Shown here: positions 18,571 to 59,295 of the stretch, piece after piece
How the letters are laid out: each line of letters opens with the position of its first letter
Numbering within the stretch: the first letter of the stretch is position 1
DNA from: a virus
Taxonomy: Duplodnaviria > Caudoviricetes
DNA length: 64,000 bases
Reading direction: 5' to 3' (one strand)
IMG/VR virus record: IMGVR_UViG_2912723979_000001
Span: 23,894 to 87,893 of that record
Position numbers and translations under genes: made by a program
Notes under the pieces: model-generated
What the model was told of the DNA's origin: nothing
Databases searched by the model: none
What the model saw: only the letters and a program-made list of their open reading frames with translations

Positions 18571-18617
18571 AAGGTAGCCGATACAGCATTGCAATGCAAT
18601 ACAGATGGGCGTAGGGT
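18571..18617. promoter_or_regulatory. Overlapping divergent promoters
   Basis: Plus: TTGCAA-17-TAGGGT; minus: TTGCAT-17-TACCTT; GCATTGCAATGC palindrome across both -35 boxes. Confidence 0.7.
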
Positions 18618-27335: not shown

Positions 27336-27481
27336 TGACCGCAACCGCCACCGCCATGCCGCCGGGGCAGCGCATCGTCTACCCGCGGCCGCCGGTCACG
27401 GTCCTCCGCAGCGAGTTGTTCGTGGAGCCGGCCTACGAGGGCGGCGAGCCGTACGACCAGGACGATGAGGATGAGGAGTAG
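27335..27481 (+). CDS. Small acidic-tailed protein (48 aa)
   Basis: TGATG coupling; ends DQDDEDEE*. Confidence 0.4.
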   Translation: MTATATAMPPGQRIVYPRPPVTVLRSELFVEPAYEGGEPYDQDDEDEE

Positions 27482-27549
27482 GTGGTGACCATTGGTCACC
27501 ACCTTAGGGTCAGATAGACGACAAGGTGGTGACCATTGGTCACCACCTT
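27480..27549. repeat. Two perfect 25-bp palindromes (parS-like centromere candidate)
   Basis: AGGTGGTGACCA-T-TGGTCACCACCT at 27480-27504 and 27524-27548, 44-bp period, just downstream of par operon. Confidence 0.85.
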
Positions 27550-32042: not shown

Positions 32043-32080
32043 TGCATTGCTAAGCAATGCATAGAGCGGTACGGTAGAAC
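32043..32080 (+). promoter_or_regulatory. Promoter with palindromic operator (copy 1)
   Basis: TGCATTGCT-A-AGCAATGCA over TTGCTA-17-TACGGT. Confidence 0.85.
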
Positions 32081-37797: not shown

Positions 37798-37836
37798 ATG
37801 CATTGCTAAGCAATGCATATAGCGGTACGGTGGAGC
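37798..37836 (+). promoter_or_regulatory. Promoter with palindromic operator (copy 2)
   Basis: ATGCATTGCT-A-AGCAATGCAT over TTGCTA-17-TACGGT. Confidence 0.85.
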
Positions 37837-41704: not shown

Positions 41705-41733
41705 TTGCGCTTCCTAAATTAGGAAGCTACTCT
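41705..41733 (+). promoter_or_regulatory. Promoter with 9-1-9 operator in spacer
   Basis: TTGCGC-17-TACTCT; GCTTCCTAA-A-TTAGGAAGC at 41709-41727. Confidence 0.8.
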
Positions 41734-41787
41734 GTTTGGTGTCGGGTCAAGGGGAACAGCCCCGGACCCAGGTCGGAAGGAACCGAC

Positions 41788-42783
41788 ATGACCGAGCGCC
41801 ACTACACCGCCTGGATGACCAACGACCCCAGCTGCGTCGTCGACGACTTCATGGACATCACCGTCATCGAGGACGTCGCCATCTCCTACAAGGAGGAGGT
41901 CGTCTCCGAGGAGGACGACCCCGAGACGGGCGAGGTCACCCGGGAGACCGTCGAAACCCCCGTCTGGGAGTCCCAGGGGCAGCAGATGTTCTACGCCGAG
42001 ACCAGTGTCGACGTCCGTGAGGGTGACGCCGAGGACGGTATCCGCGAGGCCGAGTCCCTGATGGAGAAGGCCGGCTGGAAGGTTGTCGGGGACTGGGAGG
42101 CCACCGACAACAGCTACACCGCCACGGTGGAGTACGTCGGCGAGTACCGGCACGTCATTGAGGCCACCGACAACGCCGAGGACCCGACCTGGTACGAGAT
42201 CGTCCGCGGTGACCAGGCCGAGGAGCACGACGACATCCCGGAGGAGTACGGCCTGCTGGTTTTGGAGAACTACTGGCCGGACAACGGCCTGGAGGTTCCG
42301 CCGCTGGCTGACGAGTACGGCAACCCTTACTACCGGGTGCTGGTCCGAACGCAGAACGATGACGCCACACTCGCCGTGGTGGAGTCCAGCGCTGCGGGCA
42401 TGACGCCGGCCGCGTTCAAGACGACCCGCGAGATGCTGGGCCTGTCGGACGGATGGCTTGCCGATCACCTGGGAGTGTCGTCCCGCACGGTCCGGAACTG
42501 GGAAGCCGGCAAGTACCCCGTTCCGCACGGTGTGGAGGTTCAAATGGACGCGCTGAAGCGGGAGACGCGCGCCGAGGTGGATCGGTTGGTTGCCAGCCTG
42601 CACGGCAAGCCGGCCCCACAGTTGGCCACCTACCGCAACGACGCCGACTACCAGGCAGCGAACCCTGAAAGCAAGTTCCCCGCCTCGTGGCACCGAGCGG
42701 TAGTGGCGCGGGTGGCGCTTCAGATGCCTGCCGTCGGCATCGTCTACGCCGAGGAGAACGCCGGCCTAAAGGACGGCGAGTGA
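41788..42783 (+). CDS. Acidic N-terminal domain fused to Aca2/DUF1870-like HTH
   Basis: ATG 41788 after GAAGGA; C-terminal MTPAAFKTTREMLGLS...LGVSSRTVRNWEAGKYPVP...ATYRNDADY. Confidence 0.8.
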   Translation: MTERHYTAWMTNDPSCVVDDFMDITVIEDVAISYKEEVVSEEDDPETGEVTRETVETPVWESQGQQMFYAETSVDVREGDAEDGIREAESLMEKAGWKVVGDWEATDNSYTATVEYVGEYRHVIEATDNAEDPTWYEIVRGDQAEEHDDIPEEYGLLVLENYWPDNGLEVPPLADEYGNPYYRVLVRTQNDDATLAVVESSAAGMTPAAFKTTREMLGLSDGWLADHLGVSSRTVRNWEAGKYPVPHGVEVQMDALKRETRAEVDRLVASLHGKPAPQLATYRNDADYQAANPESKFPASWHRAVVARVALQMPAVGIVYAEENAGLKDGE

Positions 42784-43781
42784 CGACGAGGCAGACACTT
42801 TCGGCGCGGATGCTCCCCGAGATCCGCGCCGAGCTGGTGCAGTGGCTCGCCGACACCGGCCCCGAAGGCGGGCAGGCTCGGTGGGCACAGGGCTTCGACC
42901 CGCACACCGCGCGCGAGGAACGCCAGGCCGCCGCCGACTGGGCGGTGGCCTTACGCGCTGCCGAGCTGTTCTTCGTGTCCAAGGACATGACCCGCATGGC
43001 CGTCTCGGCTGGTCTCGCACTCCCCTCCTACCGTCTCCACCCTGAGGACCTGCCCGCCACACATGGGCTGCTGCTGTGGGAGGAGTACGCCACCGACTCC
43101 TACGAAGGCGGCGAGTACACCGGCTGCCCCATCATCGGCGTCTCCTGGGCACAGCAGGGCAGCGGCGTGCAGTTCCGCACCTGGTGCCTGCGTGAGGACT
43201 GGGTGACGTTCATGGCCAAGGGCGACCCAAGGGCCGGGCTGAAGGATCTGACGCCCACGGAGGTGCGAGCGCTGCGGATGGCGTATCCGCAGCAGATCGT
43301 GTGCATGTCCCGCGGGTTCCTGCCGTTCGGCAAGGTTCCGGGCTGGCTGTCGTCGATGCCCGACGACACCAGCGGCATGGCCCTCGCAGAGCTGGAGGAC
43401 CACTCAAGGTCTGCTGGCCGGCAGGAGCAAGCCGAGCGCGCCTTGGTCGTGACGTGGCTGCTGATGGGGCAGACGTTGGCGCGCGAGGAGGAGACTGCGC
43501 CATCGAAGGCCTCGGCGAAGCACCTGCGCCGGATCGACCCAGGCCTGCTGACGAGCGTGCGCTACGTCCGGCTCCGTCATGCAGGAGCGGCGTCCCAGGT
43601 GGGCGGGAACGGCGGTGGACGGGCCTACCAGCACAGGTGGATTGTCCGTGGGCACTGGAGGAACCACTGGTACCCGTCCCGGCAGTCGCATCGCCCTATC
43701 TGGATCGACTCGCACGTCAAGGGTCCGGATGGGGCGCCGATCCTGGATCCGGACAAGCTGGTCAACGTACTGCGCCGCTGA
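42780..43781 (+). CDS. Conserved-looking phage hypothetical protein
   Basis: GTGA coupling; C-terminal HRWIVRGHWR...PIWIDSHVKGP; in-frame TTA at 42951. Confidence 0.7.
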   Translation: MTTRQTLSARMLPEIRAELVQWLADTGPEGGQARWAQGFDPHTAREERQAAADWAVALRAAELFFVSKDMTRMAVSAGLALPSYRLHPEDLPATHGLLLWEEYATDSYEGGEYTGCPIIGVSWAQQGSGVQFRTWCLREDWVTFMAKGDPRAGLKDLTPTEVRALRMAYPQQIVCMSRGFLPFGKVPGWLSSMPDDTSGMALAELEDHSRSAGRQEQAERALVVTWLLMGQTLAREEETAPSKASAKHLRRIDPGLLTSVRYVRLRHAGAASQVGGNGGGRAYQHRWIVRGHWRNHWYPSRQSHRPIWIDSHVKGPDGAPILDPDKLVNVLRR

Positions 43782-43788
43782 ACACACG

Positions 43789-43827
43789 ACCGCCCGCCTC
43801 GACGGGGGACGTAGCGAGGCGGGCGGT
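43789..43827. terminator. Terminator between convergent genes
   Basis: 13-bp stem ACCGCCCGCCTCG/CGAGGCGGGCGGT. Confidence 0.75.
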
Positions 43828-43985
43828 TCTGTGAGCAGTGTGCCACGCGGGGCCGACATCGTTGTGGTGGCTGTCGGCGTGGGTTGGTAGCGTGGGTGCA
43901 TCGTCAGTCGCCGCGGGCGGCTGGAAGACGTGGAGCCAGGTGACCCGGGGCAGACCGGGAGCCTGGCTCGGCGCTTTTCCGGGGG

Positions 43986-45032
43986 CTAGTTCGTCCAGGT
44001 TCCGTGGAGGGCGGAGACGCTGAAGCCGGGCCCGTAGGCGACCATCAGGGCCTGGGCGCCGTCGGCCGGGGGCTGGCTGTGGGTGCGCTCCAGGACGCGG
44101 AGCACGGAGACGCCGCCGAGGTTGCCCTCTTCGCTCAGGGTGTCGAGGGAGTGGCGGGCGTCGGTCTCGGTGAGGTCGAGGGCGGTGGCGGTGTCCATGA
44201 TGATCGGCTTGGAGCCGGGGTGGATGACCGGGACGGTGACGGGGCGGCCGTCGAGCCAGTCGAGGACGGCGGGCATGACGTGGCGGGCGCCGCCGGCGGC
44301 TTGCTTGGTGGAGTCGAAGTGCAGGCCCGTGGCGTCGATGCGGCCGGCGTAGAAGTCCAGCGAGCCTGGGAGCGCGTACTCGAAGAGGCCGTCTGCGTCG
44401 ACGGTGAGGCCGGGGCCGAGGGGGTCGCTGGAGACGATGGTGGCTGCGCCGCTGTCGCCGAAGAGGGCCTTGTAGATCATGTGCTCGATGGCGGTGTCGG
44501 CGTGGTTGTAGCTGGTGGAGAGGACTTCGGCGGCCACGACGAGGATGCGGGAGCCGGGGTACAGGAGGGCCTGTTCGGTGGCGCGGATGAGGGCGTGGGC
44601 TCCGCCAGCGCAGGCCGCGGTGGTGAGGGCGGTGCGCCGGATGCCGGGGTTGAGGCCGAGCCGGGCCACCAGGTGGATGTCGAGGTTGGGGACGCTCCAG
44701 CCGGTGGCGTGGGTGGTGATGAGGCCGGTGATGTCGCCGGGCTGGAGGCCGTGCCGGGTGAGGGTGGTGCGGGCGGCTTGTTCGGCCATGGTCAGGCCGT
44801 CGTTGAAGGCGCGGGCGGCGCGCTGGCCGATGTCGGCGGTGCCGTTGATGGTGGGGGAGTTCAGGGGCTGGGTGAAGTAGCGGGAGTCGACGCCGCAGTT
44901 GCCGAGGACGCGGAGGATCGCGCCGAGCCGGGGGTGGTTGGGGTGGTGGGCGCGGATGTCGTCGGCTATCTCCGGGGTGGTGATTTTGTGCGGGGCGAGG
45001 ACGGTGGTGGGGTGGGCGATGTGGACGGGCAT
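43986..45032 (-). CDS. Type III polyketide synthase (RppA/Gcs-like)
   Basis: Cys in TAACAGGA, His in IHPGSKPI, Asn in EGNLGG, plus LFGDSGAA and YGPGF; ATG 45032 after AGGGGG. Confidence 0.9.
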   Translation of the reverse strand: MPVHIAHPTTVLAPHKITTPEIADDIRAHHPNHPRLGAILRVLGNCGVDSRYFTQPLNSPTINGTADIGQRAARAFNDGLTMAEQAARTTLTRHGLQPGDITGLITTHATGWSVPNLDIHLVARLGLNPGIRRTALTTAACAGGAHALIRATEQALLYPGSRILVVAAEVLSTSYNHADTAIEHMIYKALFGDSGAATIVSSDPLGPGLTVDADGLFEYALPGSLDFYAGRIDATGLHFDSTKQAAGGARHVMPAVLDWLDGRPVTVPVIHPGSKPIIMDTATALDLTETDARHSLDTLSEEGNLGGVSVLRVLERTHSQPPADGAQALMVAYGPGFSVSALHGTWTN

Positions 45033-45164
45033 GGGTCCCCCCTTGGGCGCGCGACCTGAATTGCAGTCAAGGTACGGCAAAGTGGCCGGTTTGTTTCCCC
45101 TGCCATCGAAGCCATGGTCTCTCACGGCTCGTCAAAGCAGGGCAAAAAGCGCCTTCAAGGGGGT

Positions 45165-45980
45165 TCAGCGGGCTTGAAGCATTCCCGGGTTGGGGTGCGG
45201 CTGCCGCGGCCCCGGCCGAAACAGGAGCATCATGAACCGGGACCCGGGGGCCGTCAGGGGCTGTGCCACGCACATCGTCACCCAGCCCGGTCCTTCGACC
45301 GCGTGCCGGATGGGGCGTTCGTCGCCGTCGGGGTGGATGCTGGCGCCGCCGGCCTCGTACAAGGGGCGGGCGGCGGGGTCGGCGAGGACTTCGTCCTCGA
45401 TCTGCCGGAGCACCTTGTCGTCTGGGCGCTGGGCGAGCGCGGCCCGGAGCTGGGGCATGACGAGCGGGGCCCAGGCGGTGGCCCAGTCGGTGAGCTGGTC
45501 GCGGCCGTCGAGGAGCATCCACCGCATCGTGTTGCGTGGTGCTGTGCCGGCGTCGAACAGGGTGTGGAACGCGTTGTTGCAGGTGAGGAGGTTCCAGGAG
45601 GCGTCGGTGACGTAGGCGGGGTAGTTGACGGCGGCGACCGCGTCGGCCCAGGCTCCGGGGACGGCGTCGCCGGCGGTTTCGTGGAGCGGGCCGGGCGGGT
45701 CCTCGCCGCGCGCGTACCGGCACAGACTGGTCCACTCTTGCTCGCTCATGCCGTAAAGATGGGCGACATCGCGCAGGAGTTCAACCGGGGGGTTGGGGTA
45801 GTTCCCGGATTCGAGGCGCTGGTAGGTGCGGGTGGTGTAGCCGAGGAGCTGGTCGACCTGGTGCTGGGAGAGGCCGGGTGCGCGTCGGCCGCGGCCGGTG
45901 GGGCGGGGCAGGCCGTGGCTTTCGGGTGCTATCTGTTCGCGCCGTTGCCGGAGGAGCTTCTGGAGTGCTGGGCGGTTCAC
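45165..45980 (-). CDS. MmyB-like regulator (XRE HTH + PAS-like ligand-binding domain)
   Basis: LQKLLRQRREQI, GRRAPGLSQHQVDQL, PAYVTDASWNLLTCN, NTMRWML. Confidence 0.9.
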   Translation of the reverse strand: MNRPALQKLLRQRREQIAPESHGLPRPTGRGRRAPGLSQHQVDQLLGYTTRTYQRLESGNYPNPPVELLRDVAHLYGMSEQEWTSLCRYARGEDPPGPLHETAGDAVPGAWADAVAAVNYPAYVTDASWNLLTCNNAFHTLFDAGTAPRNTMRWMLLDGRDQLTDWATAWAPLVMPQLRAALAQRPDDKVLRQIEDEVLADPAARPLYEAGGASIHPDGDERPIRHAVEGPGWVTMCVAQPLTAPGSRFMMLLFRPGPRQPHPNPGMLQAR

Positions 45981-50782: not shown

Positions 50783-50820
50783 GTTCTACTGTACCGCCCT
50801 ATGCATTGCTAAGCAATGCA
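50783..50820 (-). promoter_or_regulatory. Promoter with palindromic operator (copy 3)
   Basis: Minus strand TTGCTT-17-TACAGT under TGCATTGCT-N-AGCAATGCA. Confidence 0.85.
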
Positions 50821-53902: not shown

Positions 53903-53939
53903 AGAACTGTACCGTCCTAAGCATTGCTAAGCAATGCAT
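53903..53939 (-). promoter_or_regulatory. Promoter with palindromic operator (copy 4)
   Basis: Minus strand TTGCTT-17-TACAGT with GCATTGCT-N-AGCAATGC. Confidence 0.85.
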
Positions 53940-59231: not shown

Positions 59232-59295
59232 ATTGTGCTACCTCGCACTAAAACTTGCAAGGACTGTTGACTCGCACTGCCAGTGCGAGTAGCTT
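59232..59295. promoter_or_regulatory. Divergent promoter switch with operator
   Basis: Plus TTGACT-17-TAGCTT with ACTCGCACTG-C-CAGTGCGAGT (59270-90); minus TTGCAA-17-CACAAT with CTCGCACT half-site in spacer. Confidence 0.85.

Follow-up and report, generated by a model that had tools for sequence, protein, structure and literature searches.

A probable Aca2-autoregulated anti-defence operon with an AcrVA2-like partner gene on a Streptomyces phage-plasmid

Could a two-gene cassette that joins a very acidic protein region to an Aca2-like regulator be a means of countering host defence, and on what might its products act? The window (the whole stretch of DNA analyzed, 64,000 nucleotides) comes from NZ_CP058980.1, the 87,893 bp circular plasmid unnamed3 of Streptomyces sp. 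NEAU-sy36. Genes of this plasmid include those for a terminase, a major capsid protein, a tape measure protein and a lysozyme; since these phage structural and lysis genes occur together with ParA and a DnaB-like helicase, the carrier is a temperate Streptomyces phage-plasmid. We consider it probable that the cassette is an Aca2-autoregulated anti-defence operon working by a burst of expression followed by repression, with an acidic candidate inhibitor carried on Aca2 itself and an AcrVA2-like partner. We are highly confident of Aca2 control, which is more secure than any claim on targets.

The cassette lies between a NERD/DUF6233 gene pair on one side and convergent genes for a type III polyketide synthase (PKS) and an MmyB-like regulator on the other. 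Several related elements reuse this NERD-to-PKS site with different contents, and the term moron, applied to the cassette in an earlier sequence-only reading, is appropriate in the restricted sense of a swappable cassette in a variable site. Its features, in window coordinates, are as follows.

41705-41733, + strand: promoter-like TTGCGC-N17-TACTCT, predicted from sequence to be of the Streptomyces housekeeping type
41709-41727, no strand: perfect 9-1-9 inverted repeat, core TTCC-N7-GGAA, predicted Aca2 operator
41744-41769, + strand: leader hairpin 1 by folding, with a lower stem, a bulge and a GGGG/CCCC upper stem; predicted Aca2 RNA site
41772-41787, + strand: leader hairpin 2 by folding, with the ribosome-binding site in its loop, immediately 5' of the ATG
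41788-42783, + strand: ORF1, 331 aa, ATG start
41788-42141, + strand: ORF1 domain N1, aa 1-118; in the AlphaFold (AF2) model an acidic alpha/beta domain with a long, likewise acidic beta-hairpin
42142-42396, + strand: ORF1 domain N2, aa 119-203, second acidic domain
42397-42783, + strand: ORF1 C-terminal Aca2-family domain, aa 204-331, helix-turn-helix (HTH) plus Aca2 dimerisation domain
42780-43781, + strand: ORF2, 333 aa
43632-43658, + strand: ORF2 motif H285-x-W287-x-V289-R-G-H292-W293, aligned to AcrVA2 H286-x-R288-R-G-H291-W
43778-43838, + strand: long terminator-like hairpin that closes the cassette and faces the convergent type III PKS gene

The operon and its predicted Aca2 control

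The C-terminal domain of ORF1 belongs to the true Aca2 family. It scores 25.9 bits against the Pfam model Aca2_YdiL (PF08965 / DUF1870; cut-off 23.8), and the top four matches in a sequence search of the PDB are Aca2 (E 3e-5), with both the HTH and the tail motif covered. The AF2 model of ORF1 matches Aca2 in Foldseek with a TMt of about 0.8, and the domain superimposes on Aca2 of phage ZF40 (7VJO) with Z 14.6 and rmsd 2.2 over 116 of 118 residues. Profile, sequence and structure comparisons thus agree with the resemblance to Aca2 in HTH and tail noted from the letters alone. An identity as a HigA/MqsA antitoxin was rejected, as these match only the HTH whereas Aca2 matches both domains. The fusion is a real, conserved gene with 12 full-length homologs at 53-88% identity; because these come from several sources, we also rejected a frameshift or read-through artefact as its origin. 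Stand-alone Aca2/DUF1870 homologs were also seen on many Prescottella equi plasmids of about 50-106 kb (hits H61-H83).

Aca2 represses through DNA binding at an inverted repeat (PMC6765145), and DNA-contact roles in the ZF40 protein have been assigned to R30, S18, S28, S31, Q33, Y34 and R39, with R30, Y34 and R39 as the key ones (PMC8633003). In the PDB sequence alignment the first four are kept in ORF1 as R233, S220, S231 and T234, and R233 is nearly invariant among homologs, while Q33, Y34 and R39 are changed to R236, N237 and K242. Judging from the alignment, the changes at Y34 and R39 would fit a different operator.

The perfect 9-1-9 palindrome described earlier is present and spans the 17-nt spacer of the promoter; the sequence-only reading was right about this placement and overlooked the RNA leader and the AcrVA2 link of ORF2. 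Sites of the form TTG-N3-N17/18-TA-N3-T number 10 in 88 kb, the cassette promoter among them, and its pattern and position are unchanged in more than 25 related loci. The strength ascribed to the promoter is presumed, because a scan with the E. coli-type consensus does not find it. The palindrome is unique in the genome even with 4 mismatches allowed, and homologous loci retain an inverted repeat between -35 and -10. The operator arms co-vary: across 21 distinct operators, 126 of 147 cells are complementary, compared with 92.6 +/- 4.9 when halves were shuffled (maximum 113 in 5000 shuffles), a figure that is inflated by related sequences among the 21. The palindrome is, on this sequence pattern, the likely Aca2 operator.

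The 5' leader is conserved as well. In the 31 loci compared, 91.5% of cells are paired, and 11 changes affect both partners of a pair. Hairpin 1 is paired in 98.4% of cells, which is partly selection since it served as the search pattern for most rows; hairpin 2 is paired in 76.7%, with both-side changes in three of its four pairs. When viral contigs were scanned for nothing but the leader motif, 25 loci were returned, and an Aca2-like gene lies within 2.1 kb downstream in 21 of the 22 viral leader loci having more than 550 bp of downstream sequence. A covariance model places the leader ahead of aca2 in phage Gilgamesh and in plasmid NZ_CP109588 and finds it once in NZ_CP058980.1; elsewhere on this plasmid there are no further copies of operator or leader. 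An Rfam search with the leader gave zero matches. PMC13551039 describes binding of Aca2 to two leader hairpins and an "actino-motif" variant in actinobacterial acr-aca2 leaders, and the layout of the cassette, leader included, agrees with the Aca2 layout described there. By this analogy, palindrome and two-hairpin leader most likely constitute the published DNA plus RNA control system of Aca2, with the leader as a likely second, translational layer. Searching with the leader motif is an efficient way to pick out anti-defence candidates in Streptomyces: orphan Cas8e genes and several families of small acidic proteins came up together with the motif or with the fusion.

ORF1 and ORF2 overlap in GTGA, which bears out their described coupling. 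As for the strong terminator proposed after them, the hairpin is very stable (-46.1 kcal/mol, z -7.1) and a clean U-tract is absent. Overall, the cassette resembles acrIF8-aca2 of Pectobacterium phage ZF40 (PDB 7VJO, 7VJQ, 7B5J, 8W35) in the two-domain Aca2 fold with R30 kept, and shares with that operon and with actino-motif operons an inverted repeat over a TTG-N17-TA promoter, a two-hairpin leader before the first gene and small variable genes ahead of aca2. It differs from ZF40 in the fusion of Aca2 behind about 200 aa of acidic cargo, in the operator core (TTCG-N6-CGAA in ZF40), at Q33, Y34 and R39, in the large gene that follows aca2 and in carrying no acr recognised by sequence.

Acidic cargo and the AcrVA2-like partner

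Residues 1-204 of ORF1 contain exactly 52 Asp/Glu and 11 Lys/Arg (pI about 4.05), as had been estimated, and when the 85 long coding-like ORFs of the 88-kb element are compared over 120-aa windows, the most acidic one lies in ORF1. The acidity stands, but the region comprises two domains and not one: N1 has 31 Asp/Glu and 7 Lys/Arg, N2 has 21 and 4. An internal duplication was considered and rejected (hhalign probability 0.2). Every full-length homolog has an acidic N1, and in P0012-14 N2 is less acidic. N2 occurs only joined to N1, while N1 is also encoded on its own, upstream of a separate aca2 gene, in five loci (L121, L126, L172, L176 and L195) and is found as a stand-alone protein in P0287. 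Homologs of N1 plus N2 exist without Aca2 (P0015, P0018), N1-Aca2 fusions without N2 (P0016, L123), and DUF8280, a different acidic domain, is fused to Aca2 in P0020 and L181. With three kinds of cargo-Aca2 fusion (N1N2, N1 alone and DUF8280), the joining of cargo to Aca2 therefore arose more than once.

No Pfam match was obtained for N1 or N2, and whole-model searches (aa 1-203) against solved folds, including Acr, Ocr and ArdA, returned none above Z 5; weak matches such as T4 Dmd (Z 4.9, 57 aligned) are not counted as evidence. Small stand-alone clusters from Actinomycetota with an N1-like fold are present in the Atlas. By sequence, none of the cargo in this and the related operons matches a characterised Acr. 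Like the Ocr-like acidic DNA mimics, the acidic part of ORF1 is strongly net negative. N1/N2 is a candidate inhibitor, representing cargo that is normally a separate small gene ahead of aca2. As in the AcrIIA1, AcrIF24 and AcrIIA36/Aca12 fusions, cargo and an autorepressor HTH share one chain; unlike those, ORF1 has a complete C-terminal Aca2, and its cargo, a candidate inhibitor only, is unrelated to those Acrs.

Several small acidic proteins, unrelated to one another, occupy the gene position before aca2. At least five other unrelated small acidic families were seen ahead of aca2 or of an ORF2 homolog, with genes at L194:9126-9449, L198:10354-10812, L175:1683-1904, L003:3040-3666 and L113:2987-3499. 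Pfam gave nothing above noise for those scanned; the protein from L003 is similar to the DUF8280 domain. These proteins are candidate Streptomyces anti-defence proteins.

Sequence searches with ORF2 found no named family. Its AF2 model (pLDDT 83.9) has AcrVA2 as the top three Foldseek matches (E 0.003-0.01, probability up to 0.97), and AcrVA2 is the sole match at Z>=5 among 48,161 PDB chains (Z 9.9, rmsd 4.8, 220 residues aligned), the next-best chain reaching Z 3.1. In Atlas features, 29 of 30 matches are AcrVA2-like clusters (score 0.98). Homologs at 37-39% identity carry PF26125 (AcrVA2-like), weakly where checked; ORF2 itself has no entry. The link to AcrVA2 is drawn from fold, Atlas features and motif, because no sequence connection to AcrVA2 in the PDB was found directly, by profile or through proteobacterial homologs. 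A profile of ORF2 relatives recovers 8,172 clusters at E<=0.001.

AcrVA2 causes loss of the Cas12a mRNA after binding the N-terminus of the nascent Cas12a chain, and this requires H286, R288 and H291; homologs of AcrVA2, including FinQ, occur mostly in hosts without Cas12a, and FinQ lowers the mRNA of F transfer genes (bioRxiv 10.1101/2022.11.29.518452). ORF2 keeps H291 as H292 and has WxV in place of the essential HxR motif (H286, R288). Among 214 homologs, all of which carry RGHW by selection and were aligned on it, W and V each occur in 210, and a near-invariant extra His two residues earlier (H285) in 196. ORF2 thus resembles AcrVA2 (Moraxella bovoculi prophage; 7CI1/7CI2; PF26125) in size (333 and 322 aa) and in fold over 220 residues, and AcrVA2/FinQ in a colinear C-terminal RGHW...W..P block with H291 kept and in being borne by a mobile element. 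It differs from AcrVA2 in being about 10% identical, in the replacement of H286 and R288 by W and V, in the earlier His, in its Streptomyces host and in its predicted Aca2 control. With an AcrVA2 fold and WxV for HxR, ORF2 is, according to its structure model, a member of a large WxV clade within the AcrVA2/FinQ structural superfamily and not AcrVA2 proper. The modelled fold supports an anti-defence role for the 333-aa protein, which had been proposed as a second inhibitor. Among the entries searched in a published AcrVA2 ortholog table there was neither Streptomyces nor VRGHW, which does not prove their absence.

Cargo exchange and competing readings

The genes around Aca2 vary across related loci. 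Aca2 is found in the fetched flank of 10 of 160 loci encoding ORF2 homologs, and most ORF2 homologs have no Aca2 nearby; 30 of the 160, which include a few duplicates, have upstream the same small genes as Aca2 operons, and a gene for a MerR-like HTH protein often takes the place of aca2. Aca2 lies directly upstream in L008, L110, L113, L121, L124, L126 and L206, where the ORF2 homologs are divergent subtypes at about 25-65% identity. The closest homologs of the two genes occur apart: the nearest relative of ORF1 (88%, L163) has no ORF2 behind it, and the closest ORF2 homologs (L003, L004, L005 and L013) have no Aca2 upstream. A MerR/HTH_17 gene of ~170 aa lies upstream of ORF2 homologs in L063, L074, L109, L113, L121 and L124; it is often first in such operons, with or without aca2, and is possibly an alternative regulator or Aca-like marker.

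In four loci, the N1N2-Aca2 fusion is followed by an orphan Cas8e/Cse1 gene that replaces ORF2 (L166:5041-7155, L168:5027-7213, L169:5042-6805 and L170:5042-6115). These Cas8e are 567-728 aa long where complete and have an extra C-terminal tail; no other Cascade genes were present among their called neighbours. Viral Cas homologs acting as Acrs have been documented for type I-B (bioRxiv 10.1101/2023.06.24.545427), and the orphan Cas8e are candidate decoy anti-CRISPRs. Like AcrIB3 and AcrIB4 they are Cas homologs, here behind the same fusion and promoter; unlike those, they are full-length type I-E Cas8 with the extra tail, and belong to related loci and not to the window. Further orphan type I-E Cas8e (Cse1) genes were observed at L207:5989-7806 and L208:5980-7668; several orphan Cas8e of Streptomyces plasmids and elements carry extra C-terminal HTH-like tails, another Cse1 gene lies 1.7 kb from the first in L168, and similar lone casA genes occur on an S. 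anulatus plasmid and on S. clavuligerus pSCL3. Another gene downstream of an Aca2 fusion encodes a DEAD-box helicase with HA repeats (L172:6594-8999), which matches the helicases reported for acr-aca2 operons in PMC13551039.

We favor the anti-defence reading because of the Aca2 family membership, the co-varying operator, the linkage of leader and Aca2, the exchange of cargo and the AcrVA2 fold of ORF2, and also because orphan Cas8e occurs behind the same fusion and viral Cas homologs are documented Acrs. Against it stand cargo that has no sequence match to a characterised Acr, the lack of a clear fold match for N1/N2, the existence of Aca2-like proteins outside acr loci (YdiL and SO3848; PMC8434428), the loss of HxR, the number of ORF2 homologs free of Aca2 and the changes at Q33, Y34 and R39.

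Some of these points could be explained in other ways. The cassette may serve conflict between mobile elements, with real Aca2 control and a FinQ-like ORF2 that is directed not at host immunity but at other plasmids or phages, whose transfer or replication genes it silences. The activity of FinQ, the prevalence of AcrVA2 homologs in hosts without Cas12a and the 90 actinobacterial plasmid records with ORF2 homologs are in line with this, but the orphan Cas8e in the same slot of relatives points to CRISPR conflict and characterised Aca2 operons are anti-defence, and we consider this explanation unlikely. It is distinctly improbable, in our view, that the cassette is an early host-takeover or lifestyle module with no defence target, in which Aca2 holds in check toxic early proteins that adjust the host's transcription or translation and the acidic domains are general inhibitors or an appendage. 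Two kinds of downstream cargo, the AcrVA2 fold and orphan Cas8e, are tied to CRISPR conflict, and the rapid turnover of small genes fits an arms race, whereas such a module would be compatible with Aca2-like regulators in non-acr settings and with a different chemistry that the change from HxR to WxV may give ORF2; acidity is also common among phage early proteins.

Chance adjacency, in which ORF2 happened to land behind an Aca2 cassette and the two roles are unrelated, would account for the separate occurrence of the closest ORF1 and ORF2 homologs. The GTGA coupling within a single promoter-terminator unit and the recurrence of Aca2 directly before divergent ORF2 subtypes make it very improbable.

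Under the anti-defence reading, we infer binding, repression, inhibition and targets as follows. On entry, the unrepressed promoter would produce a burst of fusion protein and ORF2. As the fusion accumulates, its Aca2 domain would dimerise and bind the palindrome between -35 and -10, and transcription would stop; the same domain may also bind the two-hairpin leader and block the ribosome-binding site, as with ZF40 Aca2. The N1/N2 cargo would most likely act at the protein level, by directly inhibiting a defence protein of the host that binds nucleic acid. ORF2 would most likely act like AcrVA2/FinQ, recognising a nascent peptide and lowering the mRNA of that gene, which would stop the cell from making more of a defence or competitor protein. 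To our knowledge, Cas12a is not expected in Streptomyces, and the target is probably another protein. Cargo and ORF2 together could follow a two-pronged logic as in the AcrVA1/AcrVA2 pair.

The component classes are already known: actinobacterial Aca2 operons, Acr-repressor fusions and widespread AcrVA2 homologs. In the literature searched we found no report of their combination, of the WxV clade under Aca2 control or of interchangeable orphan Cas8e. A broader joint reading, offered tentatively, would make the cassette a counter-defence platform of actinobacterial phage-plasmids, with N1 (and N2) as new Acr families against Streptomyces type I-E, the WxV clade as a second branch of mRNA silencers guided by nascent peptides, differing in active site and aimed at targets other than Cas12a, and orphan Cas8e as interchangeable decoy subunits. 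The locus bears on what AcrVA2 homologs target in hosts without Cas12a and on how mRNA is destroyed. It offers a motif-altered member of the AcrVA2 fold in a genetically tractable host and in a probable anti-defence operon, and RNA-seq could name the target. The engineering of antibiotic producers would benefit from inhibitors that block type I-E CRISPR or restriction in Streptomyces.

Other features of the phage-plasmid

The flanking type III polyketide synthase (PhlD-like) and MmyB-like regulator, at 43986-45980 on the - strand, are themselves phage-plasmid-borne, and the pair also adjoins ORF2 homologs in L003, L063, L074, L109 and L120. A second palindrome with the core GCATTGCTAAGCAATGC occurs in four copies in the window (32043-32061, 37798-37818, 50802-50820 and 53921-53937), and the copies overlap the -35 elements of nearly identical promoter-like sites that end in TACGGT or TACAGT; a related pair lies at about 18589-18599. 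A phage repressor probably uses these palindromes as the operator of its regulon. Tandem perfect palindromes at 27480-27504 (12-1-12) and 27523-27549 (13-1-13), just beyond the gene after parA, are likely parS-like centromere sites. At 59270-59290, a 10-1-10 palindrome fills the spacer of a TTGACT...TAGCTT promoter-like site with HTH genes nearby and is probably a separate autoregulated operator.
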